A stretch of 64,000 nucleotides of DNA from an uncultured Gammaproteobacteria bacterium (GTDB lineage Bacteria; Pseudomonadota; Gammaproteobacteria; JAURND01). The position numbers were made by a program, and so were the translations under genes. The stretch spans positions 768,001 through 832,000 of the forward strand of contig CAVQQD010000002.1 of assembly GCA_963714975.1 (NCBI GenBank), in the 5' to 3' direction. Every line of letters starts with the position of its first letter. Positions within the stretch are counted from its first letter, which is position 1. A model generated the notes under the pieces. The model saw nothing but the letters and a program-made list of their open reading frames with translations, was not told where the DNA came from and did no database searches. Below, in pieces: positions 9,628 to 55,032 of the stretch.

Positions 9628-10584
9628 ATGCATTATTCTCGAATTATTGGCAGTGGTGGCTATTTACCCGAACGTATTCTTAGCAATACTGAATTGGAGC
9701 AGATGGTCAACACTTCAGATCAATGGATTCTCGAACGTACTGGCATTAGTCAGCGTCATATCATGGGAGATCAGGAGACGACTTCCTCGATGGCTGAGAT
9801 AGCCGCTACAAGAGCACTGGAAGCCGCAGGAATTAAACCGAATGACATTGAGGTTGTGGTGATTGCCACCTCGACGCCGGATCGATTTTTTCCTAGCACT
9901 GCTAGCATCTTACAAAAACGTTTGGGGATTACCAATCAATGTCCGGCCTTCGATGTTTCAGCAGCTTGCGCCGGTTTTATTTATGCTTTGGGAATTGTCG
10001 ATCCGTTAATTCGTAGTGGCGCAATTAAAACTGCGCTAATACTAGGCGCCGAGTCCCTCACTCGTTTGGTGGATTGGACCGATCGTTCTACCTGTGTTTT
10101 GTTTTCAGATGGGGCTGCCGGAGTGGTGTTGCAGGCTGATAATGCGCCGGGCTTAATTGCTACGCATTTGCATTCAGATGGGATGTATAACGAGCTACTT
10201 TATGCCCCCAGTCATTTAGGCGAATTAAAGGAACCTCCTTACATCAAAATGAAGGGAGGCGAGGTGTTTAAATTAGCCGTCAGGATGTTAAACGATATTG
10301 TTGATGAAACTTTAACTGCAAATAATTTGAGCAAAGATGCTATTGATTGGCTGATTCCACACCAAGCCAATATCCGCATTATTCAAGCTACCGCGAAAAA
10401 GCTGAATGTGCCCCTGGAGCGCGTCGTATTGACGGTAAAAGAACAAGGGAATACTTCCGCCGCATCGATTCCCTTGGCGCTGGACATCGCGATCCGTGAT
10501 GGACGGATAAAGCGCGGCGAGATTCTCTTGCTCGAGGCATTTGGTGCTGGTTTTACTTGGGGTTCCGCTTTAGTAAAGTATTAA
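9628..10584 (+). CDS. fabH: Beta-ketoacyl-ACP synthase III
   Basis: AACAGF, PHQAN, GNTSAASIP; ATG 9628 preferred. Confidence 0.96.
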   Translation: MHYSRIIGSGGYLPERILSNTELEQMVNTSDQWILERTGISQRHIMGDQETTSSMAEIAATRALEAAGIKPNDIEVVVIATSTPDRFFPSTASILQKRLGITNQCPAFDVSAACAGFIYALGIVDPLIRSGAIKTALILGAESLTRLVDWTDRSTCVLFSDGAAGVVLQADNAPGLIATHLHSDGMYNELLYAPSHLGELKEPPYIKMKGGEVFKLAVRMLNDIVDETLTANNLSKDAIDWLIPHQANIRIIQATAKKLNVPLERVVLTVKEQGNTSAASIPLALDIAIRDGRIKRGEILLLEAFGAGFTWGSALVKY

Positions 10585-36872: not shown

Positions 36873-39170
36873 ATGCCGAAGAACCAGGCCAAATCCGAAC
36901 AAATTGAGGCGGCAATCAAGGAAATACTCGAGAGTGGGGGAGAGCCCACCCTTGAATCTGCACGTCAAATGCTATCCATTAAAAATCTCACTACGACTGG
37001 ACCCCGATTTTATAAATATTTATACAGCAATCATCTATACGATGGCAGATTAAAACGTTCTGCAAAAGAAGCGCTGGGCGAGAAAGAAACAAAAGAAAGA
37101 ATTGGTGAACTAGAAAAAACTCTTTCCTTGGTAAAAGCTACCTTAGAGTCGACAGCGGATGGCCTGTTAATTCTTGATCGGGATGGAAAGCTAGTAAGCT
37201 GGAACCAGAAATTTGTAGAGATGTATCGGTTTCCTCCAGAAGTTTTGGAGACACGTGATGAGCGAGTTGCACTGCAATACATTTTAGATCAATTAAGTGA
37301 CCCGCAAGGTTTTTTTAATTCTGTAGCAAAATTATACGATCATCCAGAGGCAAAAGGAGAATTAGAAGATTTACATTTTAAAGATGGTCGGATTTTTGAG
37401 CGTTATTCACAGCCACAATTAGTAGGCGAGCAAATTGTAGGGCGGGTTTGGAGTTTTCGTGATGTCACGGAGCGACGAAAACAAGAAGAGCAGCTCCGTT
37501 TGCGTGAACGTGCCATTGAGGCTAGTACCCACGGCGTCATTATTACAGACAACACCACTCATCATAATATTTTATATGCTAACCCGGCTTTTGAACGTAT
37601 TACCGGCTATTCATTTTCTGAGATAAAAGAGCACCAGTGTTTTGTATGGTGCAAGGATGATCAACAACTACCCGCGATCCAAAATATCCGTTTGGCACTC
37701 AAAGAACAGCGTGAAGATCAAGTGATTATTCTTAATCACAAGAAAAACGGCGAGGAATTTTGGAGTGAAATTAATATTGCTCCAGTGCCTGATAGTACTG
37801 GTAAAGTTAACCATTTCGTTTGGATAATCAATGATATTACTCAGCGCAAAATCATGGAGGATAAATTATCCCACCAGGCGACCCACGATTATTTAACTGA
37901 ATTACCAAATAGATTATTGCTCCGAGATCGATTACAGCAAATTATTTTGAATGCAAAGCGATTAGAAGTAATTGCTTCTGTGTGGTTTATTGATTTAGAT
38001 CGTTTTAAATTAACCAATGATAGTTTGGGTCATGGTGCAGGTGATAAATTGTTACAAGTTATTGCTGAACGTTTAGTGAACAGCGTCCGTGAAACTGATA
38101 CGGTATCTCGACTTGGCGGGGATGAGTTTGTCGTAGTTTGTTTATTACAAAAAAATGAGTTTGATGCTATTCCATTAGTTCAAAAAATCTTAAAAAAAAT
38201 TTCTGAGCCTGTGCCAATTGATGACCGTATTATTAATATTACTGCAAGTATCGGTATTAGTTCTTATCCAAGTAATGGTGAAGATATTGATACCTTAATG
38301 CGACATGCTGATATTGCCATGTATCGTGCGAAAGATTTAGGGCGTGACAATTTTCAGTTTTTTACTCCCGAGATGAATGAGCAACTAGATAAACGTTTAA
38401 TGTTAGAGAGCGATTTACATCAAGCGTTAGAACGAAGTGAATTTGTCTTGTACTATCAACCTTTAATTTGTTTAAAGACGGGAACTATCAAGAGCTTTGA
38501 AGCATTGATTCGTTGGTTTCATCCTGAGAAAGGCTTGATACCTCCCTTAGAATTTATTCCTTTTGCTGAAGAAACCGGCTTAATAGTGCCCATTGGTGAG
38601 TGGGCCTTAACAGCAGCCTGTAGAGACTATCAGCTTTTTCGGGAAAAAATATCCACACCATTGCACATAGCTGTGAATGTATCAAGTCAACAATTTCGTA
38701 GAAATAATTTTATTGAAGTTATTGATCAGATCTTATCTAAGACTAAGATGCTCGCCAGCTGCTTAGATATTGAAATCACTGAAAGTATTTTAATCGAAAA
38801 TGTTGATAAAACCATGCTTACTTTTAATGAATTAAAAACCCGAGGGATCAATCTTATTTTAGATGATTTTGGTACCGGCTATTCAAGTTTAAGCTACTTA
38901 AAGCGCTTACCATTAGATAAACTAAAAATTGATAAATCTTTTGTAGATGGAATTGGTACTCATACCAATGGACCCGCCATTGTTCAGACCATTATTTCCA
39001 TGGCTCATGTATTAGGACTCAGTGTTGTGGCAGAAGGAGTAGAAACCAAAGAGCAATTAGAATTTTTGAAAGCCCACAATTGTGATCAAATGCAAGGCTT
39101 TTACTTTAGTCGGCCACTACCCCTGCAAGAAGCACTGAAATTATTACAACCAGAAGAAGTTTTAGTGTAA
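36873..39170 (+). CDS. PAS-PAS-GGDEF-EAL c-di-GMP enzyme with an unusual N-terminal helical domain
   Basis: Two PAS domains (WSFRDVTERR, NDITQRK); RETD I-site, GGDEF; EAL, DDFGTGYSS. Confidence 0.93.
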   Translation: MPKNQAKSEQIEAAIKEILESGGEPTLESARQMLSIKNLTTTGPRFYKYLYSNHLYDGRLKRSAKEALGEKETKERIGELEKTLSLVKATLESTADGLLILDRDGKLVSWNQKFVEMYRFPPEVLETRDERVALQYILDQLSDPQGFFNSVAKLYDHPEAKGELEDLHFKDGRIFERYSQPQLVGEQIVGRVWSFRDVTERRKQEEQLRLRERAIEASTHGVIITDNTTHHNILYANPAFERITGYSFSEIKEHQCFVWCKDDQQLPAIQNIRLALKEQREDQVIILNHKKNGEEFWSEINIAPVPDSTGKVNHFVWIINDITQRKIMEDKLSHQATHDYLTELPNRLLLRDRLQQIILNAKRLEVIASVWFIDLDRFKLTNDSLGHGAGDKLLQVIAERLVNSVRETDTVSRLGGDEFVVVCLLQKNEFDAIPLVQKILKKISEPVPIDDRIINITASIGISSYPSNGEDIDTLMRHADIAMYRAKDLGRDNFQFFTPEMNEQLDKRLMLESDLHQALERSEFVLYYQPLICLKTGTIKSFEALIRWFHPEKGLIPPLEFIPFAEETGLIVPIGEWALTAACRDYQLFREKISTPLHIAVNVSSQQFRRNNFIEVIDQILSKTKMLASCLDIEITESILIENVDKTMLTFNELKTRGINLILDDFGTGYSSLSYLKRLPLDKLKIDKSFVDGIGTHTNGPAIVQTIISMAHVLGLSVVAEGVETKEQLEFLKAHNCDQMQGFYFSRPLPLQEALKLLQPEEVLV

Positions 39171-39190
39171 TCTATATAGGATTTACAATT

Positions 39191-39625
39191 ATGGCAAATT
39201 CATTAATGCAGGAAGTTCAAGTAATTCCTAGAAATGAAATACCGGCTATTTATTCGGTGAATCAAACAGGCATAGAACATAGAATTGGTGAATTAAGAGA
39301 TTTTCAATGGCATCCCTTATTAAAACAATTCATTCCAGAACAACTAGGCATTTCTTTTAGTTGGACTCGATTGCGAGGGGATGAAATTTTGCAGCCTCAT
39401 TTACATCCTGAGCAGTCAATTATTATCATTGTAAAAGGAAACGGCCGATTATTAGGTCAGAAAAATCTACCATTGACTGAAGGTGATACTGTGGTGGTTC
39501 CTCCTGGTTGTGCCCACGGTTTTCAGGGTGACGGGGGGGAAGGTTTTTGTGCTTTATCCATCCAATTTGCTGGTGGTCTTTATACGCATCCAGAACAAGC
39601 ACGTGTTGCATTTGTGGAGAAATAA
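39191..39625 (+). CDS. Stand-alone cupin
   Basis: PHLHPEQ and GDTVVVPPGCAH motifs; homologous to the cupin domains at 43778-45777. Confidence 0.85.
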   Translation: MANSLMQEVQVIPRNEIPAIYSVNQTGIEHRIGELRDFQWHPLLKQFIPEQLGISFSWTRLRGDEILQPHLHPEQSIIIIVKGNGRLLGQKNLPLTEGDTVVVPPGCAHGFQGDGGEGFCALSIQFAGGLYTHPEQARVAFVEK

Positions 39626-39627
39626 AT

Positions 39628-40866
39628 ATGCTGACAAGGAAATACACCGCTATTGGCGCCGTTGTTTTCGCATTATGCCCGCAATTAGTTTTGGCTAGCA
39701 ATTTTCAATTTTTTTCGGGCATTGATTATAATAACCCCGCGGATTTAACTTTTTTAGTTCAAGATACTCAAATTATTTTAGGATTCGAGTATTTTCCTCC
39801 TGCACCCCATGTCACGTTTAAAGGCAGTGTAATGGTACCCGATCCTACTGGTATGGGTAATAATGTTGTGACTACAGGTACAGCCAAAAATATTGGGAAT
39901 TCCAGCTTTCCCTATGGGCGCATTGCAAAACGACTATCTAAACAATGGGTCGCTAGTTTGGATGTGACAGAGCCTTTTAAGTCGGACATTATTTATCCTG
40001 GAGATTCAATTGTAAGATATGTGGTAACCGATTCTATCATTCATTCTGTCGATGTCGCGCCTAGTGTGGCTTATCAATTTGGAGGGGGCTTATCAAATTT
40101 GGCAGTGGGTTTTGGATTGGATGCGATGTATATGAAAATTGCCTTGAATTCGAAGTACCCCTCTTTTCCTATACCTCCTAATATACCTTTTGGTGCTGGT
40201 CCTGATGCTATTTTTACTAATGGAGCATCAAGTTGGAACTATGGTTGGCACGCAGGAGCCATTTATCATGTATCTAAATCAACCATTTTGGCCGCGAGTT
40301 ATTTTTCAGCCATAAAACAAAAATTTTCTCACGGCGAAAGTACTTTTACTGGATTCCCAGACAGCCACGATTTTGCTACGAGTCTTAATTTACCTGCCAC
40401 AAGCAATTTTAGTCTTACTCAGTTTATTGGCGAAAAAATGATTGTTTTTGCACAGGCAAGTTATTCACAGTGGCATCGTTTGCAGCAAACAATATTGTAT
40501 AATACTGCCGGCCCAGCTTCAGAAATTGTGCTCAATTTTCATTACCGAAATACCTGGCGCTATGGTTTAGCTGGGCGCTATAGTCTCACGCCTGACCTAT
40601 CTTTAGGTGGCATCATTTGTTATGACTCTACTCCTACCAATAATGCTGATAGGAATTTGGCATTACCAGGAGCTAATTTGTTTATCTTAGGTGGGTCAGC
40701 TGAATATAAATTGACTAAGGAATTAGCTCTACAATTAGAATATGGTCATGCATTTACCATTAATGTACCTCTGAATAATGTAGAGGAGGGCTCTGGCATT
40801 ACCACCGTGGGTAATGCCAGCATTTACGGTAATATATTCGGGGTGCAGTTGTCCTTTAATATCTAA
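39628..40866 (+). CDS. FadL/TodX (OmpP1)-like outer membrane channel
   Basis: Signal peptide, YNNPA hatch motif, PSVAYQ, YRNTWRYG, YDSTP; ATG 39628 follows the cupin stop. Confidence 0.8.
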   Translation: MLTRKYTAIGAVVFALCPQLVLASNFQFFSGIDYNNPADLTFLVQDTQIILGFEYFPPAPHVTFKGSVMVPDPTGMGNNVVTTGTAKNIGNSSFPYGRIAKRLSKQWVASLDVTEPFKSDIIYPGDSIVRYVVTDSIIHSVDVAPSVAYQFGGGLSNLAVGFGLDAMYMKIALNSKYPSFPIPPNIPFGAGPDAIFTNGASSWNYGWHAGAIYHVSKSTILAASYFSAIKQKFSHGESTFTGFPDSHDFATSLNLPATSNFSLTQFIGEKMIVFAQASYSQWHRLQQTILYNTAGPASEIVLNFHYRNTWRYGLAGRYSLTPDLSLGGIICYDSTPTNNADRNLALPGANLFILGGSAEYKLTKELALQLEYGHAFTINVPLNNVEEGSGITTVGNASIYGNIFGVQLSFNI

Positions 40867-40905
40867 TGTGGGGGGGGGCGGCGGTGGCCATTCAGCACAG
40901 GATAG

Positions 40906-40978
40906 AAACAGGCATCTATGGCGCCCCATCTATGGCCTATCTTTCGTTACTTCAACCTAGGCTCATAGCTGCCTGTTT
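40906..40978. terminator. Long inverted repeat between convergent fadL-like and halogenase genes
   Basis: AAACAGGCATCTATG ... CATAGCTGCCTGTTT followed by T's. Confidence 0.45.
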
Positions 40979-41003
40979 TTGCCAACTTTGGCAATAGGGT
41001 GAG

Positions 41004-42590
41004 TTACACTAAGGTTTCTGCTTTCTTTTGATTATACAAGTGCTGCAAGTATTGATATTGAGAAGGCAGTTTTTCTGCTAATTCACCTGACTTGATTTGG
41101 ATTTCTTGTATAAGTTGTTCGCCTCTTTGCATAATATCATGGCGAAAATTAAGAATAGGCATAGCAGTATGGGGTAATTGACCGACGCCACATAAAATAC
41201 ATTGGTAATTAGTGTTTGTCCAAAAGGTTTCAAATTGAGCTGCGAAAGAGCTATACAGCTCATTATCGGGTTGTGTGCTTTGTCGAATAGGGAGCCCAGC
41301 TTTTTGACGATTCAATGTTTGCTGTAAATATTCAGGCATTTTTGTTTCGTACTTATTAGCCTTCCAAAATGGTGTGTCTTCACGTTGCGCAGTTTTAAAG
41401 TGCATGATAATAAAATTTTTCACATCTTCAACCATATAGGATATTTTTTGATTAAATTTATCCCGATAGACTGGATCAATATTTTTATTGGGGAAATTTT
41501 TAATTAATTGATAGAGTGCTGCGTAAATAAAGTAAATTCCAGTAGATTCCAGAGGTTCCAAAAAGCTACTAGATAGCCCAATGCCCACGCAATTGTTTAC
41601 CCAGGCATGGCGGCGTCTACGCGATTGAAATTTAATGAAACGAATTTTTGCTTGCTCGCCGCGTTTGCCAAAAAATGCTCTCACTTCTTTTTCTGCTTCA
41701 TCGTCGCTAATAAATTGGCTGGAATAGACATAGCCATTTCCTGTACGATAAAATAACGGAATTTCCCATACCCATCCCGCCTTAAGAGCGGTTGCTGAAG
41801 TAAAAGGGCGAATACCTTTAATTTCAGCAGATTCTTCAAAATTAATCGAAATTGCACGATCGGTTAATAAGCTTTCTTCAAATGAAACTATGGGCTCATG
41901 TAGAGTTTTTTCAATTAAAAACCCATTAAACCCTGAGCAATCAATAAATAGGTCTGCAGCATATTTTTTTCCAGATTCACTTACCACGCATTTAATATTC
42001 CCTTGTTCATCTAATTCAACATGCGTCAAATTATCAGACACATAATTAATTCCATGCTTAATCGACCATTTTTGTAAAAAATTAGCTAGTAATAGTGCGT
42101 CAAAATGGTATGCATAATGCTGTACTGGCGTGCCATTTAAAAATTTAGGAGATTTATTGAGTTCCCACGCTTTAGCAGTCGAAAAGCAGGCATGGTCCAT
42201 GGGAATATTAAAATTCTCTTCTAGTCGTTTTTTAATCCATATATGAGTTAATGGCACTTCGTCAATCGTTGGAACTTCACCGAAATTATGATGATAGCTA
42301 TCACCTCCAGTTTCAGGAGGGATTTTCCAATTAATAAATTTTACTCCCAGTTTGTAAGTGGCTTGACAACTTGGCATCCATTCTTCTTCCGAAAGTCCCA
42401 AGTGATCAAAAAATTCTGTTTTTATTGTAGGGATGGTAGCTTCTCCTACACCAATTCTAGGAACAGAGGGAGACTCGATAACAGTTATATTAACTTTAAA
42501 GCCTAAAGATTTTCCGATGTAAGCAGCAGACATCCAGCCGGAGCTTCCACCACCAACAATAATAATATTCTGAATTTTTTCTTGTTCCAT
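41004..42590 (-). CDS. Flavin-dependent tryptophan halogenase (PrnA/RebH-like)
   Basis: IVGGGSSGW, IGVGEATIP, catalytic K in ATYKLGVKF, WVWEIP, FLEPLESTG; PrnA-like segments HHNFGEVP..DEVPLTH.W and FETFWTNTNY. Confidence 0.93.
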   Translation of the reverse strand: MEQEKIQNIIIVGGGSSGWMSAAYIGKSLGFKVNITVIESPSVPRIGVGEATIPTIKTEFFDHLGLSEEEWMPSCQATYKLGVKFINWKIPPETGGDSYHHNFGEVPTIDEVPLTHIWIKKRLEENFNIPMDHACFSTAKAWELNKSPKFLNGTPVQHYAYHFDALLLANFLQKWSIKHGINYVSDNLTHVELDEQGNIKCVVSESGKKYAADLFIDCSGFNGFLIEKTLHEPIVSFEESLLTDRAISINFEESAEIKGIRPFTSATALKAGWVWEIPLFYRTGNGYVYSSQFISDDEAEKEVRAFFGKRGEQAKIRFIKFQSRRRRHAWVNNCVGIGLSSSFLEPLESTGIYFIYAALYQLIKNFPNKNIDPVYRDKFNQKISYMVEDVKNFIIMHFKTAQREDTPFWKANKYETKMPEYLQQTLNRQKAGLPIRQSTQPDNELYSSFAAQFETFWTNTNYQCILCGVGQLPHTAMPILNFRHDIMQRGEQLIQEIQIKSGELAEKLPSQYQYLQHLYNQKKAETLV

Positions 42591-42627
42591 AAGGGGTACT
42601 CCTATTTTGATTCGAAAATAATGGCAC

Positions 42628-42719
42628 GTTGTCCCTGCACGGAAGCAGGGATCCAGTCTTCAGGATGCAAAAGCTTCACGTCCTTGTTGCCTGGATCCTG
42701 GCATCCGTGCCAGGACGAC
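42628..42719. repeat. Family-2 MITE-like element overlapping the 3' end of the PLP enzyme gene
   Basis: Homologous to 57923-58016, including the internal spacer. Confidence 0.8.
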
Positions 42720-43785
42720 AGCGGTGCGTTAAGACATTAATTACTCTGTTGTTTTCATTTTTGTTTCCTAAGGTAATTCTAGCCGTGTTATGAAGCTCCT
42801 CAGGGCGCCACAGTACTTTAATGTTAGCATCATTAAAGCGATCAATTATTGTATGAGCATCAGTGAATTCGATGCAGATAAAATTAGTTTCACTAGAATA
42901 AATTTTTTTAATTAATGGAGAATTTTTAATTGCGTCTATAACCCGTATTCGTTCTTGTCGTATTTGTTCAATTCCATGATGTAGAAGTTCTGGATGATTC
43001 AGTTGTTGTTGTAACATATTCTCAATTGGACCCGGCATGTTATATGGAGGCTGGACCCGTTTCAGCGTGTCTATAATTTTTTCATTAGCAATTAATGCGC
43101 CAACCCGAAGGCTTGCCATTCCTAATGCCTTAGAACAAGTTCTAAGTATAATCAAATTAGGGTATTCTAATATTTTATTTAAATAGGAAGGCTTTTTTGA
43201 AAATTCGACATAAGCCTCATCAATAATAATTAGATTTGAAAATTTATCTAAAATGTTGATTATATTTTCGGGATTAATTCGCGATCCTAATGGATTATTG
43301 GGGTCACACAGTAACAAAAGTTTTGCCTTGTGGTTAATTATTTTTGTAATGGGTAATTGTGCTCCGTCAAGTTCAAGGTCGAACAGAACGGGGTGAATTC
43401 TATATAATTGAGCCCAATGGATAAAGGCACTAAAAGTAGGTGGAGTTAGGATTACTTCGTCCAGATTGGGTTCAGCAAATGCCTTAAATACTAGGTCTAA
43501 TGCATCGACAGCACCAGTAGAAAATAAAATATTACGAAAATTAAGTGGATTATCCTTAATAGGGAGGCTTTGAGTTTTTTGATCAAGTTTCCAAATAAAA
43601 TCTAGGTAATGTTGTTTAATACTTCTTTGATGAAGATCAGGGTAATGTTTAAAGGTCCCACCGAATGCATTAGTATTATTATTTAATAGCAACTGTGCGT
43701 TGTCAAAAACTTGATTTTCAGCTAGCGGTCCGGGGAAAGATAATTTTTTAACATTTTTTCTAGAAAGTTCATGAGCATTACTCAT
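42676..43785 (-). CDS. HisC/CobD-fold PLP-dependent aminotransferase or decarboxylase
   Basis: CDPNNPLG, IDEAYVEF, RTCSKALGMASLRVG. Confidence 0.85.
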   Translation of the reverse strand: MSNAHELSRKNVKKLSFPGPLAENQVFDNAQLLLNNNTNAFGGTFKHYPDLHQRSIKQHYLDFIWKLDQKTQSLPIKDNPLNFRNILFSTGAVDALDLVFKAFAEPNLDEVILTPPTFSAFIHWAQLYRIHPVLFDLELDGAQLPITKIINHKAKLLLLCDPNNPLGSRINPENIINILDKFSNLIIIDEAYVEFSKKPSYLNKILEYPNLIILRTCSKALGMASLRVGALIANEKIIDTLKRVQPPYNMPGPIENMLQQQLNHPELLHHGIEQIRQERIRVIDAIKNSPLIKKIYSSETNFICIEFTDAHTIIDRFNDANIKVLWRPEELHNTARITLGNKNENNRVINVLTHRCRPGTDARIQATRT

Positions 43786-44728
43786 ATTTTTTCTCCTTAT
43801 CCATTAATGAGTAAACTCTTGAGGAAAAAGCGTCTACCATTTTCCAAGATTCTTCCAATACTTCATTGATACGTTTTGCTGTGTGTAAATTTTCTATTAA
43901 CAATGGTTGTTCGTCATTTAAATTTGTTTTTATTAGGTTGAATGTTGTCGGAAATTTTATGTTAGTAATTTCATAAGATTCGCAAATATTAATAAATAAG
44001 TTAGTAACAGGTTTTGTGATTAAATGATTAATGGCTATTTTTTCCATTTGATCTAAAATGAGTGTTTGATAAATGAACCATTCTGCTAGAGATTCTAAGG
44101 TCAAGTCAAAAGATTTTTCTTCTATTGTCTGTCTTGAGAGGAAAGGTTCTTGACATTTGTTAAACCAAATTTGTATAGCATTAGAAAATATTTCTCGTTT
44201 TTTTAAATTATTTAACAGTCCAGATTTAATTTTTTTAAAGAGAAGATTAGAATAAAATTGATTTATATATTTTTGGTTTTTTTTAAGTGTTTGTGTCAAA
44301 ATTAATTTTTGCTTTGAGTTTGTTTTTGCTGTTGTATAAGTATCTTGATAAAACTCATTGCCTAATTGGATGCATACACTATGCAAACCTTTTGGGCCAG
44401 CAATGAAGGAGTGAGATTGTCCAGCTGGAATTAATACTGTATCACCTTCTTTTATTTTAGTATAAGAGTTTTCTCCAATAAATTTACCACTTCCAGAAAT
44501 AAACAATAATAGATGTGGAAATAAATTTTCATGGAGCGGCATAGTATGATCGGGTTTTAAATATCCTATGTTAATGGATAATGCAGAAATAGATGGTAAA
44601 ATTTTATGTAAGGATTCGTGCCATGTCAAATCCCTAAACTGTCCTATATGGTGGATTTTTCCTTGAAGTTCTATCCATTCTACAGGTGCTATATCCATTA
44701 ACTTTAAATGAATAATTTTTTTGGTCAT
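43778..44728 (-). CDS. Cupin plus degenerate HDO-like domain (paralog B)
   Basis: Cupin PLH.....H / GDTVLIPAGQSH; C-terminal half aligns to paralog A (WF.YQ...LD..EK.A..HLI) but lacks the diiron ligands. Confidence 0.75.
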   Translation of the reverse strand: MTKKIIHLKLMDIAPVEWIELQGKIHHIGQFRDLTWHESLHKILPSISALSINIGYLKPDHTMPLHENLFPHLLLFISGSGKFIGENSYTKIKEGDTVLIPAGQSHSFIAGPKGLHSVCIQLGNEFYQDTYTTAKTNSKQKLILTQTLKKNQKYINQFYSNLLFKKIKSGLLNNLKKREIFSNAIQIWFNKCQEPFLSRQTIEEKSFDLTLESLAEWFIYQTLILDQMEKIAINHLITKPVTNLFINICESYEITNIKFPTTFNLIKTNLNDEQPLLIENLHTAKRINEVLEESWKMVDAFSSRVYSLMDKEKKYE

Positions 44729-44752
44729 GTGGAACCTCCAAAGATTACTCCA

Positions 44753-45777
44753 TTAATCTTTTTGATCAGATAAAACCGCAATACGATTCAGCATGATATT
44801 TAGCATCTCCCAGCCTTTATCGATAACCTGGTGCAATCGTCGATAAGTAAGCGCATCTTGACCCTTAAGTAATTTTTTCCCCATTTGTGCATGTTCATCA
44901 TCTCCTTCCCCGTGAATATCGAAATAATTTGAATGAACATTTTTTCCTACTTTTTCCTTAGCCCAGTTTCCATAATAAGATCCTCCTGTTTCAAGGATTA
45001 AGTGGATTAGAGCAGTTTTTTCTATATTATCTAATACAAACATTTGATAGCAAAACCAACTAGAGCTTGCATGTAAAATAGGATCTTTAATAACATGCTT
45101 GTTTTCACGATTTGCAAGTAATTCATTATGCCCAAATTCTTCTTGAAGATGTTTTAGAAATAGTGGTATGTATGTTTTGTCTTCACAAGTTGCTTCTCTA
45201 CTAAACATAATGAGCTGAAAATAATCAGAAAATACCTGGACGCAATCTAAGAATCGTTGTTTTTTAAGAGAACTTAAGTGCGTTTTGTTTTTCAGAAGAC
45301 TGAAAAATTCATTGTTCAAGGTTTTTTTTAAGCGTAATTGATTGTGCAATAATAATCCATCAAAGGTAAGCGCATATGATTTATAATTATCGACAGGTGT
45401 TTTGTTTTTTTTAAATGTTTTGAGATTAAGTTGTATTTGTATGCCTTGTAGCCCTTCCACACTAATTTTATTGAAGCCATAAGGGCATTGCTGTGGGATC
45501 AGTAGTATGTCACCAGCACAGATTTTCGGATCTTAGTGCCTATAAGATTAGCTGATCCCTGATATATATAAATCAGGGTACCTAGCGGTTCAGTTCTAAT
45601 TGCTAATTCATTATTTTTTTGGCCAAAAATCCAAGAAACATTAAATTGCTTGTTATTAGGTAATAATTTTTTAAGGATAGCATGATGATGCAGAGTTTTT
45701 ATATTTCTTATACTTGGAATTTGTTCTTGATGAATAATTTTTGATTTTTCAAGCGTTACACTAGTCATTTTTTCCAT
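44753..45777 (-). CDS. Degenerate cupin plus heme-oxygenase-like diiron oxidase (paralog A); one frameshift near 45523-45526
   Basis: Adding one A joins ORFs 45499-45789 and 44753-45460 (GTKIRKICAGDILLIPQQCPYGFNKISVEGLQG). HDO-type ligands: EEFGH, HLILE, HGEGDDEH (HxxxDxxH). Confidence 0.75.
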
Positions 45778-45829
45778 AAACAACTCCATGTGTAGTCGTA
45801 ACTACTTACGCCATAGCCAGCTCAGTTCC

Positions 45830-45870
45830 GTCGTCCCGCTCCCGCGATCAAGTCGCGGGAGCGGGACGAC
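45830..45870. repeat. Family-2 palindrome with an 18-bp perfect stem
   Basis: GTCGTCCCGCTCCCGCGA-TCAAG-TCGCGGGAGCGGGACGAC. Confidence 0.85.
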
Positions 45871-45877
45871 AATAATG

Positions 45878-47164
45878 CTAGTAATAAATATATTTTTTTT
45901 CTTTTTTATATAATAAATTATACAATGGTGAGGTGATCATTGTCGTAATAATTGCCATAGTAACTAATATTGTAAATAAAGCGTGAGTTATAATGTGTTG
46001 TTGGAGCCCTATGTTGAGCACTATTAGCTCCATAAGGCCTCTTGTGTTCATGAGAATTCCTATTCCTATAGAGTCACGCCAGTTTATACCGGTAATTTTA
46101 GCTGCAAACATTGTGCTTAACCCTTTTCCTAGTATAGCAGTTAATAAGACGACTGCTAAAAGGCCTAACAAATCTATTGAATTTATTAAATTGATTTGTG
46201 TGTTTAGGCCTGAAAATACGAAAAATATGGGCAGTAATAATGAATTAGTGACATGTTCGAGTTTTTGTTTTATCTTAATACTCAAATCTCTAGCTCTAGG
46301 GATAATAATCCCAGCTATAAAAGCACCAAATACCGAATATGTTCCAGCATGATCAGTAAACCAAGAGCAAATCATTAACCCTGCTAAAATTGTTCCTAAT
46401 GTTGCATTAGAGTTTAATTTAATTTTATCGAACACGGAAAAAAATTTTCCTAGAGGTTTTTTTATTAATAACATAACCACTATAAACGACGTTGTTCCGA
46501 GTATAGCTAATAATGCAATGTTTATATTGCTTTTTAGACCACTTAATAAAATGGCGAAAATAATCCATGCTAACAAGTCACCTAATGTACCAGCAGACAA
46601 GGCAATTAATCCCAGTTCGGTATGTACCGCATTTTTTTCCTCTAAAATGCGTGCTAGTATAGGCAGAGCAGTAATTGAAAGTGCAGTACCAAGAAAGATA
46701 CTTTTAGATATATCAGAAATTGATTCATTGAATAAATTAAGCTGACTAGGTAAATATAGAAATAATACTACGCCCAATAAAAATGGGATACATGTTCCTA
46801 TGCTGGCAATAAAAGCTGCTGATTTGTATTGATTTTTTAAAATTTTAATATCAAGTTCTAAACCGACCTGAAACATATATAATACAATTCCTATCTGACT
46901 TATGGAAAATAATATTGACATTGATGGATTGGGGATCGTCTTATGGTTTGCCAGCAAGTATTCTGTAGTTGGGAAAATCCAGCTATGTAAATCAGGGAAG
47001 AGTAATCCGAAGAATGAGGGTCCTAATAAAATTCCGGCGACCATTTCACATATTACATTAGTTTGTGAAAAAAATTTATTACCAATATAACTGATAGCCC
47101 TGCAAAAAAATAAAATTATAGCAAGTTGGATAAAAAGTCTTAGTATTAAATCAGAATAAGACAT
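45878..47164 (-). CDS. Cation:proton antiporter (CPA2, single domain)
   Basis: EMVAGILLGPS, SITALPILARIL, FGAFIAG, LMNTRGLMELIVLNIG. Confidence 0.9.
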   Translation of the reverse strand: MSYSDLILRLFIQLAIILFFCRAISYIGNKFFSQTNVICEMVAGILLGPSFFGLLFPDLHSWIFPTTEYLLANHKTIPNPSMSILFSISQIGIVLYMFQVGLELDIKILKNQYKSAAFIASIGTCIPFLLGVVLFLYLPSQLNLFNESISDISKSIFLGTALSITALPILARILEEKNAVHTELGLIALSAGTLGDLLAWIIFAILLSGLKSNINIALLAILGTTSFIVVMLLIKKPLGKFFSVFDKIKLNSNATLGTILAGLMICSWFTDHAGTYSVFGAFIAGIIIPRARDLSIKIKQKLEHVTNSLLLPIFFVFSGLNTQINLINSIDLLGLLAVVLLTAILGKGLSTMFAAKITGINWRDSIGIGILMNTRGLMELIVLNIGLQQHIITHALFTILVTMAIITTMITSPLYNLLYKKEKKYIYY

Positions 47165-47212
47165 TGGAAGTTACCTTTAGGCCACTGTTCAAGCCATAAC
47201 CAGCTTCACCAT

Positions 47213-47260
47213 GTCGTCCCCCGCGGACAATCCCGCGATCAAGTCGTGAGAGCAGACGAC
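47213..47260. repeat. Degenerate family-2 repeat
   Basis: GTCGTCCC...CCCGCGATCAAGTCG...GACGAC; preceded by GCCATA.CCAGCT as at 45810. Confidence 0.7.
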
Positions 47261-47276
47261 GGTGTGAGTAGTTACT

Positions 47277-48707
47277 CTATATTTCAAATTTTTGGGCTTC
47301 TCTTTCATATAAGCCTTCAAAGCGAACTACATCATCATCATTTATGTAACTCCCCATTTGTATCTCTAAAATTTCAAGAACTTCTTCTGAAGTATTTTCA
47401 ATACTATGCAGCATTTTTGGTGGAATATAAGTTGATTGGTTTTCATTTAAAAATAAAATTTCATCGCCACGGGTAATTTTAGCTTGCCCAGAAATGACAA
47501 CCCAATGTTCTCCTCGGAAGCGATGCATCTGCAAAGCAATGCAACCTCTGGGCAAAATACAGACATTTCGGATTTGATAATTAGTGTTAGATTCAATTAT
47601 TTTATAATGACCCCAAATGCGAAATACTTGCTGCGACATAGTTGCCTCAGGGCGATTTTTTTTCTCTAGTATTTTTACCATATTAGCAATTTCTTGGCTT
47701 GATTCTTTATCTGCAACTAAAATTACATCAGGAGTATCTACTACTACGATATCCTTAACTCCTACCGCAGCTATTAAACGCTTATCCGACCTTAAGTAAG
47801 AGTTTTTAGAATTCAATGCAACAACATTACCAATCGTAACATTTTGATCTTTATCTTTTTGAGTAATCTTATAAAGTGACTTCCAATTTCCTATATCAAT
47901 AAATTTGGTATTTAATTTTGTGGTCACAATATTTTGTGATTTTTCCATTACTGCATAGTCTATGGATATATCAGGGGCTTTTTCAAAGTCATCTCGATTG
48001 ACAAGTAATTTTTTGTTTTGTAACGTTTGATATTTTATTGCCTCTTTACAAGCATGAAATATTTTTGGAGAATGTTTTTCAAGTTCTTCTAAAATTACCG
48101 AAGCACGAAACATGAAAATTCCAGAATTCCACGTATATTTATCTTGGGTAAGGAATTTTTTTGCTGTTTGTAAATCTGGTTTTTCAATAAAACCATTAAC
48201 ATTGAATACATCATTGTTTGAAAAAACTTCTCCAGATTCGAGGTAACCGTAGTTCATATCGGCGTGATTAGGTTTCACACCAAAAGCAACTATTTTATTT
48301 TCTGTAGCCGCTTGTTTGGTTTTTTGAATCGCTTGGACTAATTTACGTGGATTTTGAATATAATGATCGATTGGCATTACTAATAAGATAGGATCTTTGA
48401 AATACTGTTTGGCACATAAAGCTGCAAGCGTAACAGCTGCAGCACTTCCACGGGCTACAGGTTCTAGAATTAAACATGAATAATCAAAATTTAATTCACG
48501 TACTTGTAAATCAATTATATAACGTCGGTTAAAATTACAAACAATAATGGGTGCTTTGATTTCCGAAAATTCTCGCAATCGTTCCAAAGTATTTTGCAAT
48601 AAAGATTTTTCATTATATAAAGACAATAATTGCTTAGGGTGTTGTTCGCGCGACAATGGCCATAAACGTTTTCCAAAACCACCAGACAATATGACAGGAA
48701 GGATCAT
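47277..48707 (-). CDS. manC: Mannose-1-phosphate guanylyltransferase/mannose-6-phosphate isomerase
   Basis: PVILSGGFGKRLWPLSR, FIEKP, WNSGIF, SIDYAVMEK, C-terminal cupin LQMHRFRGEHW. Confidence 0.9.
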   Translation of the reverse strand: MILPVILSGGFGKRLWPLSREQHPKQLLSLYNEKSLLQNTLERLREFSEIKAPIIVCNFNRRYIIDLQVRELNFDYSCLILEPVARGSAAAVTLAALCAKQYFKDPILLVMPIDHYIQNPRKLVQAIQKTKQAATENKIVAFGVKPNHADMNYGYLESGEVFSNNDVFNVNGFIEKPDLQTAKKFLTQDKYTWNSGIFMFRASVILEELEKHSPKIFHACKEAIKYQTLQNKKLLVNRDDFEKAPDISIDYAVMEKSQNIVTTKLNTKFIDIGNWKSLYKITQKDKDQNVTIGNVVALNSKNSYLRSDKRLIAAVGVKDIVVVDTPDVILVADKESSQEIANMVKILEKKNRPEATMSQQVFRIWGHYKIIESNTNYQIRNVCILPRGCIALQMHRFRGEHWVVISGQAKITRGDEILFLNENQSTYIPPKMLHSIENTSEEVLEILEIQMGSYINDDDVVRFEGLYEREAQKFEI

Positions 48708-48742: not shown

Positions 48743-50560
48743 TTATTGTAACGCCTTGCTAATACCATGCTCAGTTTTATCCCAATAATTTGGTTTAAAA
48801 AATAATTGGTATAAGGCCCTATAACTTGCAATCGACATAAATAGCCAGTAAATAGGGGCAGTTAGAGCATGAAAAATTAAATAATATTTTTTCCTACGTA
48901 AGGCAGCAATTAGATTCAGAAGTATCATAATAAATAGCCCACCAATGAAATTAAAGAGTGCAATTTTTAATACTATCGGCGGAAATATTTGTTCTACGTA
49001 TTCTTTGTTAAGAAAAAAATAGCTAATAAAAAATATCCATAGTAACACATTTGCTAAATTACTTACAAAAGTACCTCCTACGAATAACTGAAATCCAATA
49101 AAGCCTTTTGTGCCTATTGCTCGCCATAACTTAAATGGATTACGCATGTGGACAAGGTAGGTCTGCATATAACCTTTGATCCATCGAGAACGCTGTTTTA
49201 TCCAATTATAGAGCTTGGTATTTGCTTCTTCATAGGTGGTTGACGGCATCACTTTTTCTTTATAGCCGAGACGATTAAGACGAATACCAATATCAGCATC
49301 TTCAGATACGTTGTAAGGGTCCCAAGCACGGATTTTTTTTAAACATTCAGTTTTAAAATGGTTGCTAGTACCCCCTAGAGGAATGGGCGCCCCAACATAT
49401 TCTAAAGCTGGAAGCATATAATCAAACCAATAAGAGTACTCGAGAGTGAACATTTTAGTTAACCAATTATCATTTGAATTGTAAAAATTTAAGCAGCATT
49501 GCACGCAGGCTAATTTTTGTTCATTCTCTCCATGGAATACGGCAAGAGCTTTTTTTAATTGCAAAGGATCTGGCTTATCTTCCGCGTCATAAATTGTCAG
49601 ATATTCGCCGCGTGCAAATTTTAAACCATAATTACAGGCCTTTGCTTTAGTCCGTGGAAGTTTATTTGGTATGTAAATGAATTCATAACATCCTGAAATG
49701 TGGAGATTTTTTAATATCTCAATTGTCTCAGTATCGTCGGACTCTAAAAGTATTTTAATATCAAGTTTGTGTTTTGGATAATCTAAATTGTTTAAATTAT
49801 TAATTAAAGCTTTTAAAATTACTTCTTTTTCTTGGTAAAGGGGGATTAAAACAGTATAAATGGGGAGGTTTTTAAGGTTAGCTTCTACTTGAGTAATGTC
49901 GATTTTGCGTGACAAAAACATCCCAATTAATGTTAACAAAAATTTGTAGATTAAAATACCAAACAAAATGAACGACAGAACTAGGTTGAATACGAGTAAA
50001 GTTCGCAGTGGATTAATACTCAAACAACTTACCAGGAAAATAAAAAAAATTGCTAGAAAAATTTTATGCCAGGTGCAAAAGGTTTTTTTGGCACTAAGAG
50101 ATTGATTACTTGTGTTTAATTCTGATATGGATTCCTCGATATAAGTTTCATCAAATACTTTTTGTAATGTCCATAAGATGTCAAATTTAGACGTGCATAC
50201 AATTTCTGCATTTCCACCCCATTCGGCATGAATAAGCTCAAAAGTTTCATCGCTAGGATTGGCTGTGGCAACTACTATTTGATGACCAGTTTGCTTAATA
50301 GGCAATACTAATTGAGAAAAATACATATTCCGTTGCTTAGACAATAGCAAATTTTGATCAATCTCAGTGTGGATTAGGTCAACAAATTTTAGTTGAAAGT
50401 GAGAGGCGATCGCTTGGTAATAGTCTAATGATCGCAGATTTTTTATTGAAAATAAAATATCTCCTAATTTTCCTCCAATTTTTTTTTGCGTTTCCAAGGC
50501 CAATTCAATTTCATCATTGCTTGCGAGTCCCTTTTTTACAAATATCTCACCAAGTTTCAT
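48743..50560 (-). CDS. GT2 processive glycosyltransferase with an N-terminal MshEN-type domain (NfrB-like architecture)
   Basis: KLGEIFVKKG......ALETQ..KLGDIL; TKAKACNYG, YDAED, SEDAD, QRSRW; TM helices. Confidence 0.85.
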   Translation of the reverse strand: MKLGEIFVKKGLASNDEIELALETQKKIGGKLGDILFSIKNLRSLDYYQAIASHFQLKFVDLIHTEIDQNLLLSKQRNMYFSQLVLPIKQTGHQIVVATANPSDETFELIHAEWGGNAEIVCTSKFDILWTLQKVFDETYIEESISELNTSNQSLSAKKTFCTWHKIFLAIFFIFLVSCLSINPLRTLLVFNLVLSFILFGILIYKFLLTLIGMFLSRKIDITQVEANLKNLPIYTVLIPLYQEKEVILKALINNLNNLDYPKHKLDIKILLESDDTETIEILKNLHISGCYEFIYIPNKLPRTKAKACNYGLKFARGEYLTIYDAEDKPDPLQLKKALAVFHGENEQKLACVQCCLNFYNSNDNWLTKMFTLEYSYWFDYMLPALEYVGAPIPLGGTSNHFKTECLKKIRAWDPYNVSEDADIGIRLNRLGYKEKVMPSTTYEEANTKLYNWIKQRSRWIKGYMQTYLVHMRNPFKLWRAIGTKGFIGFQLFVGGTFVSNLANVLLWIFFISYFFLNKEYVEQIFPPIVLKIALFNFIGGLFIMILLNLIAALRRKKYYLIFHALTAPIYWLFMSIASYRALYQLFFKPNYWDKTEHGISKALQ

Positions 50561-53232: not shown

Positions 53233-53406
53233 ATGAGCCAAGAAAAATCGTTTGAAGTTCAAACTAATCAAGCATTTCCAAAGATATCAGATCAAATTGC
53301 TGATTATCATTCTACCGAAATTTCCTCAATTAAAAAAACGCGGAAATATCGTTCAAAACAGCGCCATATTTTACCCATCATCGATAAGCCATCTGGCGGT
53401 TCCTAG
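53233..53406 (+). CDS. 57-aa small protein (not in the ORF track)
   Basis: SD GGAG upstream; MSQEKSFEVQ...KKTRKYRSKQRH...GGS*; first ORF after the promoter. Confidence 0.45.
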   Translation: MSQEKSFEVQTNQAFPKISDQIADYHSTEISSIKKTRKYRSKQRHILPIIDKPSGGS

Positions 53407-53479
53407 AGGTTTAATTTGTAAATTTTTGCGCTTATTTTTATAGTTTCACGATTGTTTTTCGTAATTTGGAGATAAATGA

Positions 53480-53695
53480 ATGAATAAGGAGATTAATAAG
53501 AGTTATCTCAATACCTTAGGAAAGTATGAAAACCTTTACTGGGAAAGTGTTTTAGAAGATGACTTAGATGATATAATTGAACCGTATGAGGAAATCGAAC
53601 GCCACCTACGGGAGCAATATGGTTATGACAAGGAACATGCTAGGAAGGAGCTATATTCTTCTCAGCAGAACGATGGGTGGGACGATGATTATTAA
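53480..53695 (+). CDS. CsbD-like small acidic protein
   Basis: SD GGAG; W...L.DDL...I...LREQYGYDKEHA resembles CsbD/YjbJ. Confidence 0.55.
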   Translation: MNKEINKSYLNTLGKYENLYWESVLEDDLDDIIEPYEEIERHLREQYGYDKEHARKELYSSQQNDGWDDDY

Positions 53696-53715
53696 TTTTT
53701 AAGGGAGGAATTTAT

Positions 53716-53958
53716 ATGACATCAATTGAATTAGATAGAGAAGTCGAAGCTAATAATCCAGATGCGAAATTTTATGATAAAAGTGAGAGTACTTTTGAAG
53801 AATTGAAAGAAATGTTAGAAGGAGCTGGCTATCAAGTGAAAAAAAAGACGGCTGCAACTAAGCAAGCAATCGAAAATTATAGTAAAACTCATCCATGGGA
53901 AGCAATTGTGATTTCAGCATTAGCAGGAGCAACACTTTCATTATTATTAAGAAAATAG
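53716..53958 (+). CDS. ElaB/YqjD (DUF883) family protein
   Basis: Y.K.HPW.AI.I.A..G..L..LLRK tail anchor. Confidence 0.8.
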   Translation: MTSIELDREVEANNPDAKFYDKSESTFEELKEMLEGAGYQVKKKTAATKQAIENYSKTHPWEAIVISALAGATLSLLLRK

Positions 53959-53962
53959 CTAT

Positions 53963-54334
53963 ATGGATGAAAAAGAGATTAAAAACAGCTTACTACGTAA
54001 TTTTTTCAATATATTTCGAGGGTGCTCAGGGATCTATACGGAAATACTTGAGCTAATGAAGCTTGAATTGCAGTTGGCAAAGTTAAGTATTCTGTTTTTA
54101 TTGATTGTATCTTTGGCAATTTTTGTATTGTTGGGAATTTTTTGGTTTTTCTTGATGGCTTTGTTGACTGTATTTTTTTATTCAATTTCTGGTAATTGGT
54201 TCCTAGCATTAACTATTATTTTATTATTAAATCTTGTATTGATTGTTGCTTTAATAATTATTGCGATTAAGTTAGTTGGCAACCTTAAATTCTCTGCTAC
54301 ACGTCGCCAGTTATTATCACATAAGAAGGTTTAA
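53963..54334 (+). CDS. YqjE-like membrane protein
   Basis: LELMKLELQLA, two TM helices, FSATRRQL; follows the elaB-like gene. Confidence 0.75.
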   Translation: MDEKEIKNSLLRNFFNIFRGCSGIYTEILELMKLELQLAKLSILFLLIVSLAIFVLLGIFWFFLMALLTVFFYSISGNWFLALTIILLLNLVLIVALIIIAIKLVGNLKFSATRRQLLSHKKV

Positions 54335-54340
54335 AGTTCT

Positions 54341-54655
54341 ATGTTAATGATTAAACGTAAAATTAGTTTGCTTGAGTCTAAAATTGTTGCAAAAAAAATA
54401 TTGCTTGCTAATGATTTTTCTCAAACAAAAAAAATCCTTAGTTCCCCTAAATATATTGTAGGTTCGATACTGGGAGGATTGACTTTAGGCTTTATTTTAT
54501 TTGCCGTGAAAATAAAAAAAACCGGAAAAAATACCAAAAAAACCCCAAAAAATGTTAATCCTGGAGCTCTCCCAGACCTGCGTTATAAATTTGTTTTTTT
54601 ACTTTTAACTTTTTTAATTAGCATTATGCGTGTGATTCACTCGAGGGAGGGATAA
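54341..54655 (+). CDS. Small basic membrane protein (YqjK-like position)
   Basis: Third gene of a yqjD-yqjE-yqjK-like triad. Confidence 0.5.
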   Translation: MLMIKRKISLLESKIVAKKILLANDFSQTKKILSSPKYIVGSILGGLTLGFILFAVKIKKTGKNTKKTPKNVNPGALPDLRYKFVFLLLTFLISIMRVIHSREG

Positions 54656-54774
54656 TTTCTTACATTTCAAATGGTGTGGTTATTACATTTTAATTTTATT
54701 AAATGGTATTTGATTATTAAGTAAGTTAAATAACTTTGTTACACTTTATTGATTGTCAAATGGAGAACATAAAG

Positions 54775-55032
54775 ATGCCAAGTCAAGACATTAATCAAGC
54801 CTCAGAGGCGTTAAAATCTCATCTTAATGGGGGGCGAGAAAGATTATCTAAAGCTATTAGCGATGCATTAGGTGACACTATGGAAATGTTAGAAAAACAA
54901 GGTCATCAGATGAAAAAGCAAAGCTTGCATGCGCGTGATTCAGTAGATAAGTATGTAAAATTAAATCCTTTTAAATCATTGAGTATGGCATTAGTCGCTG
55001 GTGCTATTGTGGCACTAATTTTACGACGATAA
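54775..55032 (+). CDS. ElaB/YqjD (DUF883) family protein
   Basis: VDKYVKLNPFKSLSMALVAGAIVALILRR. Confidence 0.8.
   Translation: MPSQDINQASEALKSHLNGGRERLSKAISDALGDTMEMLEKQGHQMKKQSLHARDSVDKYVKLNPFKSLSMALVAGAIVALILRR

Follow-up and report, generated by a model that had tools for sequence, protein, structure and literature searches.

A putative halogenated-tryptophan tailoring cassette combining a PrnA-like halogenase with two paralogs of cupin and diiron-oxygenase-fold domains in an uncultured gammaproteobacterium

Each newly characterised member of the heme-oxygenase-like diiron oxidases/oxygenases (HDOs) has brought new chemistry, with alkene, alkyne, nitrile, skatole, N-nitrosourea and nitro formation among the outcomes covered in the accessible portions of a 2026 review and of PMC11869266. 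According to the same portions, the HDOs encoded beside tryptophan (Trp) halogenases, AetD and SktA, remodel the side chain of halogenated Trp (halo-Trp; PMC11869266; 2026 review), and SznF is the only characterised HDO that carries a cupin domain, which is C-terminal (2026 review). Here we describe a locus in a 64,000-nucleotide stretch of DNA, hereafter the window, from an uncultured Gammaproteobacteria bacterium (lineage JAURND01; assembly GCA_963714975.1, contig CAVQQD010000002.1, positions 768,001 to 832,000 of the forward strand). In this locus the gene for a PrnA-like Trp halogenase is grouped with genes for an aminotransferase and for two paralogous proteins, A and B, each composed of an N-terminal cupin and a C-terminal HDO-fold domain. 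We consider the locus to be probably a copy of a conserved and so far uncharacterised biosynthetic cassette that tailors free halogenated Trp. Since the same gene set recurs in other bacteria, the cassette probably makes an unknown halogenated indole compound; the copy in this genome is possibly inactive.

Coordinates throughout are those of the window, and G000 denotes its genome (contigs C1, C2 and C3). A reading of the letters made without database searches, the sequence-only reading, had singled out positions 41004-47164 as five co-oriented genes in an AT-rich block. This block holds six open reading frames (ORFs) on the minus strand, and all long ORFs within it share that strand. Its features are as follows.

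41004 to 42590, minus strand: PrnA-like flavin-dependent Trp halogenase, 528 aa (Pfam PF04820)
42676 to 43785, minus strand: class I/II pyridoxal phosphate (PLP) aminotransferase, HisC-like, 369 aa (Pfam Aminotran_1_2, E 8.8e-35)
43778 to 44728, minus strand: paralog B, 316 aa, cupin and HDO-fold domain (Pfam AraC_binding/Cupin_2)
44753 to 45460 as the listed ORF, frame open to 45532, minus strand: HDO part of paralog A, 235 aa, GTG start (ligand columns EEHEHDH)
45499 to 45789, minus strand, TGA at 45501-45499: N-terminal cupin part of paralog A, 96 aa (match to the N-terminus of the orthologue P0002)
45830 to 45870, no strand: GC-rich perfect palindrome with 18-bp arms, a dispersed-repeat copy, between the antiporter gene and A
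45878 to 47164, minus strand: CPA2-type cation/proton antiporter, 428 aa (Na_H_Exchanger, E 8.6e-57)

The common orientation and the low GC content are thus borne out; there are six ORFs, as A is split, and the block reaches past the listed genes. Genes of the cassette overlap or lie 24-85 nt apart, and the reported overlap of the aminotransferase gene with B is present and spans 8 nt (43778-43785). The GC content of 41004-47164 is 33.9%, against a genome mean of 43.0% (sd 3.4; 2542 equal-sized genome windows), and only 0.55% of those genome windows are as low. The AT-rich stretch runs on to ~57 kb, so the low GC is not specific to the five genes originally listed. Scans of 38900-47500 for promoter-like sites (44, against 35.5±5.8 expected) and terminator-like sites (4, against 5.3±2.4 expected) were uninformative on operon structure.

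The halogenase matches the Pfam Trp_halogenase model PF04820 over profile positions 1-454 of 458 (E 2e-150), aligns to PrnA (2apg) over residues 5-519 (E 1.6e-156), and matches RebH and Thal at E ~1e-148. The motifs that had been called intact are indeed kept: GGGSSG represents the GxGxxG flavin motif and GWVWEIP the WxWxIP motif, the catalytic Lys is the K of KLGVKF, aligned to the IKF of PrnA, and the stretch FLEPLESTG at the catalytic Glu equivalent is identical in PrnA (where the two residues are Lys79 and Glu346). The likeness to PrnA, RebH and Thal therefore lies in the full-length alignment and in shared catalytic and flavin motifs. It does not extend to the rest of the prn cluster, as prnB, prnC and prnD have no counterpart here. 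This halogenase is the only PF04820 gene in the 2.56-Mb genome, which leaves no PrnC-type second halogenase.

Paralog A carries the only diiron site of the cassette. The 96-aa and 235-aa ORFs are the cupin and HDO parts of one gene, lying in different frames, and not the single open gene that had been assumed. Intact orthologues include P0002 (345 aa, 84% identity), P0003 (341 aa, 73%) and P0004 (346 aa, 56%); the HDO part of A is 84% identical to P0002, and its cupin part is 70% identical to the P0002 N-terminus. The ligand set EEFGH, E and HxxxDxxH is complete in the HDO part, and the corresponding diiron columns H104, E108, H111, E157, H183, D187 and H190 are invariant in an 88-row family alignment. 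The cupin of A lacks every His ligand, as do the cupins throughout its clade (see below).

The sequence-only reading had extended the intact HDO ligand set to both paralogs and described two complete cupin-HDO fusions. This holds for the HDO part of A and fails for B. B is homologous to A over both domains, yet it lacks ~33 residues that include the EExGH motif and has K, N and other residues in the remaining diiron ligand columns. Judged by homology, B shares the HDO fold and is not a diiron enzyme. As B has lost all diiron ligands, the pair amounts to one diiron site and one variant cupin site. The cupin ligand columns of B read HNHH, with H at position 1, N at position 2, H at the canonical Glu position, and H in motif 2; the same pattern is found in P0009 (49% identity), its closest and sole close relative. 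An AF2 model of B (pLDDT 86.9) has a beta-barrel and a helical domain, and the modelled cupin matches small cupin barrels of the TM1459 type (TMt 0.72-0.81).

The aminotransferase scores 227.2 bits against the TIGR01141 hisC model, below the cut-off of 276.55, and so falls short of the HisC equivalog level. A HisC-like paralogue elsewhere in the genome (G000:C2:1014290-1015105) is 29% identical to it, and counterparts directly follow the cupin-HDO gene in two other loci, L002 (30%) and L023 (34%).

A and B belong to a family defined by an N-terminal cupin and a C-terminal HDO domain. With E<=1e-3 as the threshold, a profile built from six A relatives recovers 439 cluster representatives among 1.84 billion proteins, and E<=1e-30 still leaves 227; most are cupin-then-HDO fusions of 330-380 aa. 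A word-index search alone had given six relatives of A and one of B. The automatic Atlas names of these proteins, cupin and iron-containing redox enzyme clusters, are leads and not evidence. We call proteins A-type when the cupin His ligands are lost and the diiron site is kept, and B-type when the cupin is kept and the diiron ligands are lost. Among 179 family rows, fragments included, both sites are kept in 77, 46 are A-type and 12 are B-type; a further 27 have no aligned cupin region, and 17 lack both sets, many of these being fragments or the HNHH variant.

In a FastTree phylogeny of the family the A-type proteins gather in a single clade (SH-like support 96), where they make up 30 of 36 rows. 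B of the window falls in the sister clade (31 rows, support 99), which mixes both-intact forms, here termed partners, with diiron-dead forms, and single-gene both-intact proteins occupy the other half of the tree. The tree carries local supports only, is midpoint rooted, includes many compositionally odd rows, and omits ten rows (long fusions, cupin-only pieces and sequences of <200 aa). Its simplest reading is that a two-site ancestor was duplicated, that one copy then lost its cupin site, and that the diiron site disappeared repeatedly from the other. We found no described HDO with an N-terminal cupin in the literature, where coverage of subscription journals and supplements was thin and a described member may exist. 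The accessible portions of PMC13185094 and PMC8269204 contain nothing on the cupin-HDO family. Literature queries joining Trp halogenase with Legionella found nothing, and broader ones gave known HDOs only.

Foldseek returns proteins of the heme-oxygenase-like helical fold, namely TenA, CADD, UndA and AetD. The HDO domain in a model of P0002 superposes on CADD with a Z-score of 17.4 (rmsd 2.8, 191 residues), followed by HrmI (17.1), BesC (17.0), HamA (17.0), UndA (16.8) and AetD (16.7), and then by FlcD (16.0), RohS (15.0) and SznF (12.1). The predicted HDO fold of A is thus confirmed on the P0002 model, and in these modelled comparisons the domain appears equidistant from CADD, HrmI, BesC, UndA and AetD, the last being no nearer than the other four. 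Searches of the Protein Data Bank (PDB), a set that includes AetD chains, using phmmer with the HDO part of A and hmmsearch with the family profile, returned no HDO at E<=10, only chance matches and cupins. No characterised pathway matched the locus, which supports the earlier view of an undescribed pathway.

Against the closest described systems, the locus shows the following likenesses and differences. With the aet and skt clusters, as far as the accessible sources describe them, it shares an HDO-fold diiron enzyme beside a Trp halogenase, with halo-Trp, to judge from the adjacency of the halogenase gene, as the expected substrate. The HDO domain of A nevertheless has no detectable sequence similarity to AetD or SktA and is fused to an N-terminal cupin, and it is accompanied by a second cupin/HDO-fold subunit and an aminotransferase. 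The halogenases also differ, being of the AetF/SktB type there and of the PrnA type here, and the P450, tryptophanase and SktC-type monooxygenase of those clusters are absent from the window locus. SznF, in the parts of its description available, likewise has HDO diiron and mononuclear cupin domains, which act in turn on one amino-acid substrate. It differs in being one chain with the order helical N-domain, HDO and cupin, as opposed to cupin then HDO in the window family, and its fold match is weaker, without a sequence match. The two live sites here would reside on separate polypeptides, and the SznF context is methyl-arginine in place of halo-Trp. The SznF cupin site is a three-His site. 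CADD, UndA, BesC and HrmI share the seven-helix fold (Z 16.8-17.4) and a like His/carboxylate ligand set, but show no sequence-level match, and none has an N-terminal cupin or a ligand-less partner subunit.

Scans for related loci gave 11 loci on contigs from one genome per species and 20 loci on metagenome contigs. A Trp halogenase adjoins the cupin-HDO gene in 7 of the 15 loci with the fused type of gene, the window counted. Among the eight loci with an A-type gene it is adjacent in six (window, L001, L018, L020, L021 and L022), with halogenase identities of 39-72%. The two A-type loci without a visible halogenase have almost no upstream sequence, L019 ending after 309 nt and L024 being cut at the gene. 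The seventh fused-type case, L023, has a single both-intact cupin-HDO gene, and in L002, from a Coxiellaceae metagenome-assembled genome, an aromatic amino-acid hydroxylase takes the position of the halogenase.

Aminotransferases are a near-constant feature. L001, L018, L019, L020, L021 and L022 share an orthologous class IV aminotransferase (46-73% identity), in the window, L002 and L023 the gene immediately after the cupin-HDO gene encodes a HisC-like aminotransferase, and a class IV aminotransferase lies ~5.3 kb downstream in L008, from a Pseudomonas isolate. Wherever a fused-type locus has enough flanking sequence, the HDO is found together with an aminotransferase and one or more live cupin sites. 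Genes typical of biosynthetic tailoring also occur in related loci, for flavin reductase, P450, O-methyltransferase, FAD monooxygenase and ATP-grasp enzymes, as do fused ABC transporters. Of the five genes whose co-occurrence had been proposed, the halogenase and cupin-HDO genes therefore do recur elsewhere, and the aminotransferase nearly always accompanies them.

The antiporter does not. No homologue of it was found by tblastn (E<=1e-5) in any of the 30 other loci, and it is separated from A by the palindrome listed above, so its place in the cassette is not upheld and it probably lies outside the system. Its assignment to the Na+/H+-exchanger family is sound, whereas its score against the CPA2 model TIGR00932 (137.5 bits) stays below the cut-off of 238.3. 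The palindrome has arms at 45830-45847 (plus) and 45853-45870 (minus), with none expected in shuffled sequence. There are 17 arm matches (<=3 mismatches) over the three contigs, several as inverted pairs 5 nt apart, and the dispersed palindrome looks like a REP- or MITE-like element. A copy of the repeat is also present near window position 7226.

Conserved synteny continues past the halogenase, beyond the block first delimited, into three genes on the plus strand.

36873 to 39170, plus strand: PAS-GGDEF-EAL protein, 765 aa (Pfam EAL, GGDEF and PAS)
39191 to 39625, plus strand: stand-alone cupin, 144 aa (Cupin_2, E 2.9e-09)
39625 to 40866, plus strand (listed ORF from a TTG at 39547): FadL/TodX-family outer-membrane channel (Pfam Toluene_X, E 4.8e-32)

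A signal-peptide-like stretch, MLTRKY, makes a start of the channel gene near 39625 likely. Divergent orthologues of the channel (55%) occupy the same position beside the halogenase in L001 and L018. Both loci also have a PAS-GGDEF-EAL orthologue (56-57%) on that side, and another (34-39%) flanks the cassette in L030, where a 60%-identical halogenase is found with a stand-alone HDO. In L001 and L018 three genes, for an AMP-binding enzyme, the class IV aminotransferase and a stand-alone HDO, lie between the channel and PAS-GGDEF-EAL genes; in the window this place is taken by the 144-aa cupin alone. This cupin has the canonical HxH...H set (ligand columns HHSH), is 49-53% identical to the cupin domains of the partner clade (L001, L018, L019, L020, L022 and L024) and just 27-29% identical to B, and ends exactly at the inter-domain linker of the family (GGLYTHPEQARVAF). 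The window cupin could have arisen by truncation of a partner, or serve as a third component, and it may add a mononuclear site to that of B. As a separate observation, proteins of cyclic-di-GMP turnover are encoded beside the HDO clusters in six loci (window, L001, L018, L030, L022 and L027), PAS-GGDEF-EAL in four and REC-EAL in two; four of the six loci are close kin, which makes their independence doubtful. The PAS-GGDEF-EAL orthologue of L001 (18124-20422) is split into two ORFs of 447 and 269 aa, and is intact in the window and L018.

A-type and B-type genes are neighbours in the window, L001 (4-nt overlap), L018 and L024. The class IV aminotransferase gene of L019, L020 and L022 is flanked by an A-type gene on one side and by a both-intact partner gene on the other. 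Two proteins join such units in one chain: P0010 (683 aa, metagenomic) is an A-type protein fused to a B-type protein, and P0017 is a live HDO fused to a ligand-less HDO. Complex prediction with the HDO part of A and B gave a median score of 0.75, compared with 0.02 for the best of three controls; of 80 solved complexes 58 reached that mark, as did 2 of 110 mismatched pairs. At least 82% of contacts are common to the runs, the partner pLDDT is at least 74, and the predicted interface lies on the helix with the motif DPxL..A...WF..Q...LDxxEK in both chains (residues 125-147 of A and 197-223 of B), which would explain why B retains this motif despite the loss of its ligands. These predictions support a putative A-B heterodimer formed through the HDO-fold domains.

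We infer a heterodimer, a substrate, an order of steps and a product as follows. The PrnA-like halogenase would chlorinate or brominate the benzo ring of L-Trp, at the 7- or 6-position. A two-subunit oxygenase of A and B would then work on halo-Trp or its keto acid in two successive oxidative steps aimed at the side chain or the amino group. In this complex A would contribute the diiron site and a dead cupin, B a mononuclear three-His cupin site and a dead HDO-fold domain, with dimerisation through the HDO-fold domains. The translationally coupled PLP aminotransferase would interconvert amino and keto forms, either supplying the keto acid or re-aminating a keto product. The product would be an oxidatively remodelled halo-indole, and the FadL-type channel, conserved in the two closest loci, could move it across the outer membrane. 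Any particular named product is far less probable than the cassette itself, and the nitrile, oxime, nitro or keto-acid-derived classes suggested earlier are guesses.

A more specific proposal is that A and B define a new obligate heterodimeric oxygenase class, which arose by reciprocal metal-site loss after duplication of a cupin-HDO ancestor and which, with the aminotransferase, performs new HDO chemistry on halo-Trp. We hold this to be rather unlikely as a whole. Two analogies indicate what such an enzyme might do. The hydroxyphenylglycine pathway employs a dioxygenase, an oxidase and an aminotransferase, and by the same logic the side chain might be shortened or rearranged oxidatively in two steps and then re-aminated. 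The other possibility, by analogy to SznF, is N-oxygenation followed by a rearrangement.

Several points weigh against the cassette model as drawn. The order of the halogenase, aminotransferase, cupin and HDO steps is a guess. A was not found as a single uninterrupted reading frame, and the P0002 model that stands in for it is moderate (pLDDT 70.7, from a six-sequence alignment). The second cupin His of B is replaced by N, and metal binding by B is an assumption. The complex score may echo the homodimer interfaces of solved HDOs, our own alignments having served as input, and P0010 and P0017 are singletons, each on one contig, so that they may be read-through artefacts. The window lacks three genes of L001 and L018, for the class IV aminotransferase, the AMP-binding enzyme and the stand-alone HDO. 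Finally, a search limited to PF01613 gave no flavin reductase in the genome, whose completeness is 93.75%; the same model matches in 13 of 14 control genomes, and L020-L022 encode a flavin reductase within the cluster.

The most serious alternative is that the locus is a decaying relic, a once functional cassette that is being lost, with a genuine frameshift in A and its accessory genes shed. It turns first on the frameshift. The frame of the cupin part ends at the TGA at 45501-45499, and the frame of the HDO part is open from 45532, where its extension upstream of the listed start encodes the last cupin strands (GDILLIPQQCPYGF). Both frames are open only over 45502-45532 (31 nt), so the switch must fall there, and this interval includes a run of four A on the minus strand (45523-45526). 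Programmed -1 slippage on the A-run is not favoured, as the site does not conform to the canonical X XXY YYZ heptamer. With the only diiron site interrupted, the pathway is broken in this genome unless the frameshift is an assembly error. The assembly of the window otherwise looks clean, as 92.7% of it is covered by 72 ORFs and three overlapping ORF pairs that raised suspicion proved to be distinct complete genes; this makes widespread indel error less likely. Elsewhere in the genome, a second frameshift splits a gene for a SmoA-like flavoprotein (G000:C3 ~680,069-680,085; L017 ~10069-10085) that adjoins a stand-alone HDO gene, 37% identical to A (G000:C3:678827-680419; L017 8777-10419). On the strength of the clean window and this second frameshift we lean slightly towards a real mutation in A over an assembly indel at a homopolymer.

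Erosion would also account for the absence of the class IV aminotransferase, AMP-binding enzyme, stand-alone HDO and flavin reductase of related loci, for the truncation-like end of the stand-alone cupin, and for the presence of the halogenase in just one of nine genomes of the order. On the other side, the two halves of A are otherwise open and, at 70% and 84% identity to the intact P0002, point to a break that is recent or artefactual; the break lies beside a homopolymer, the usual site of assembly indels; and the halogenase, aminotransferase and B genes are intact. We put a decaying relic at a little short of an even chance. Near the stand-alone HDO on C3 are MFS, PP-loop and arginine-biosynthesis genes. 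Loci of Rickettsiella, Aquirickettsiella and Pseudomonas show the same pairing of a stand-alone HDO with a SmoA-like protein, and P0083 and P0118 join both in one chain.

An AetD/SktA-type pathway, in which A alone turns halo-Trp into an indole nitrile, skatole or aldehyde and the other genes are accessory or unrelated, would fit the adjacency of halogenase and HDO, a hallmark of the aet and skt clusters in the accessible portions of PMC11869266 and the 2026 review. It would fit also the match of the A domain to the AetD fold and the combination of halogenase and stand-alone HDO in L030. We judge it improbable: neither phmmer nor the family profile found sequence similarity to AetD, or to any other HDO in the PDB, at E<=10, AetD is structurally no nearer than CADD, HrmI, BesC or UndA, and the live cupin and aminotransferase that occur in every well-flanked fused-type locus are both dispensable for AetD/SktA chemistry.

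Less probable again is that the locus serves to take up aromatic or indolic compounds and to break them down or detoxify them, with no biosynthesis. The FadL/TodX-type channel beside the halogenase in the window, L001 and L018 and the AMP-binding, CoA-ligase-like enzyme in L001 and L018 would suit such a role, and cupin dioxygenases are common in aromatic degradation. Trp halogenases, however, serve anabolism, the related loci encode fused ABC exporters besides O-methyltransferase, P450 and ATP-grasp ligases, and ring-cleavage or beta-oxidation genes were not seen in the annotated loci. That these are chance, functionally unlinked neighbours in an AT-rich island can practically be set aside: the low-GC block does reach well past the five genes and the antiporter is not conserved with the rest, but the halogenase, cupin-HDO pair and aminotransferase recur in divergent loci (halogenase identities of 39-72%), with the genes here overlapping or 24-85 nt apart.

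Two further features of the same AT-rich block lie beyond the cassette. A gene at 48743-50560, following a GDP-mannose pyrophosphorylase gene, encodes a 605-aa family-2 glycosyltransferase-like protein whose N-terminus presumably resembles a T2SSE_N/MshEN-type domain, to judge from its appearance. At 53252-55032, the part of the window with the lowest GC content, six small plus-strand ORFs (63-123 aa) stand in a row, one of them with a weak holin-like Pfam match (E 5.5e-06, below the cut-off).

The preferred reading, that of a conserved halo-Trp tailoring cassette, also bears on its hosts. The genome of the window has three DotI/IcmL genes, with matches in none of 14 control genomes, and this makes the earlier label of a Legionellales-like, host-associated bacterium reasonable. 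The sequence-only reading had called the cluster unexpected in such a host. That view is not sustained, as the genomes holding L001 and L002 also carry DotI/IcmL genes, and the cassette is thus not unique to one such lineage. Within the order of the window, the halogenase occurs in the single genome mentioned above and relatives of the A HDO domain in two of nine, the second being of the stand-alone type. Together with the low GC content, these counts fit a patchy and probably horizontal distribution. Separately, tblastn with the L001 AMP-binding enzyme gave ~20 weak matches (21-34%) in G000 (C2 and C3), which by sequence suggests many adenylate-forming enzymes for a 2.56-Mb genome.

For genome mining the finding is a good lead towards an enzyme system not described before, short of a defined pathway, and its value for this particular genome is lower as the catalytic subunit is interrupted. 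What is new is a sizeable uncharacterised branch of the HDOs, with 439 representatives, an N-terminal cupin and three ligand classes. The branch gains a testable context in halo-tryptophan and an aminotransferase, and a heterodimer hypothesis with one live site per subunit. If a heterodimeric oxygenase class were confirmed, it could yield a new halo-indolyl amino acid or signal from Dot/Icm-bearing intracellular bacteria. Several of the bacteria with these gene sets are Dot/Icm-bearing and probably intracellular, which points to so far unexplored halogenated indoles among the metabolites of host-associated microbes.

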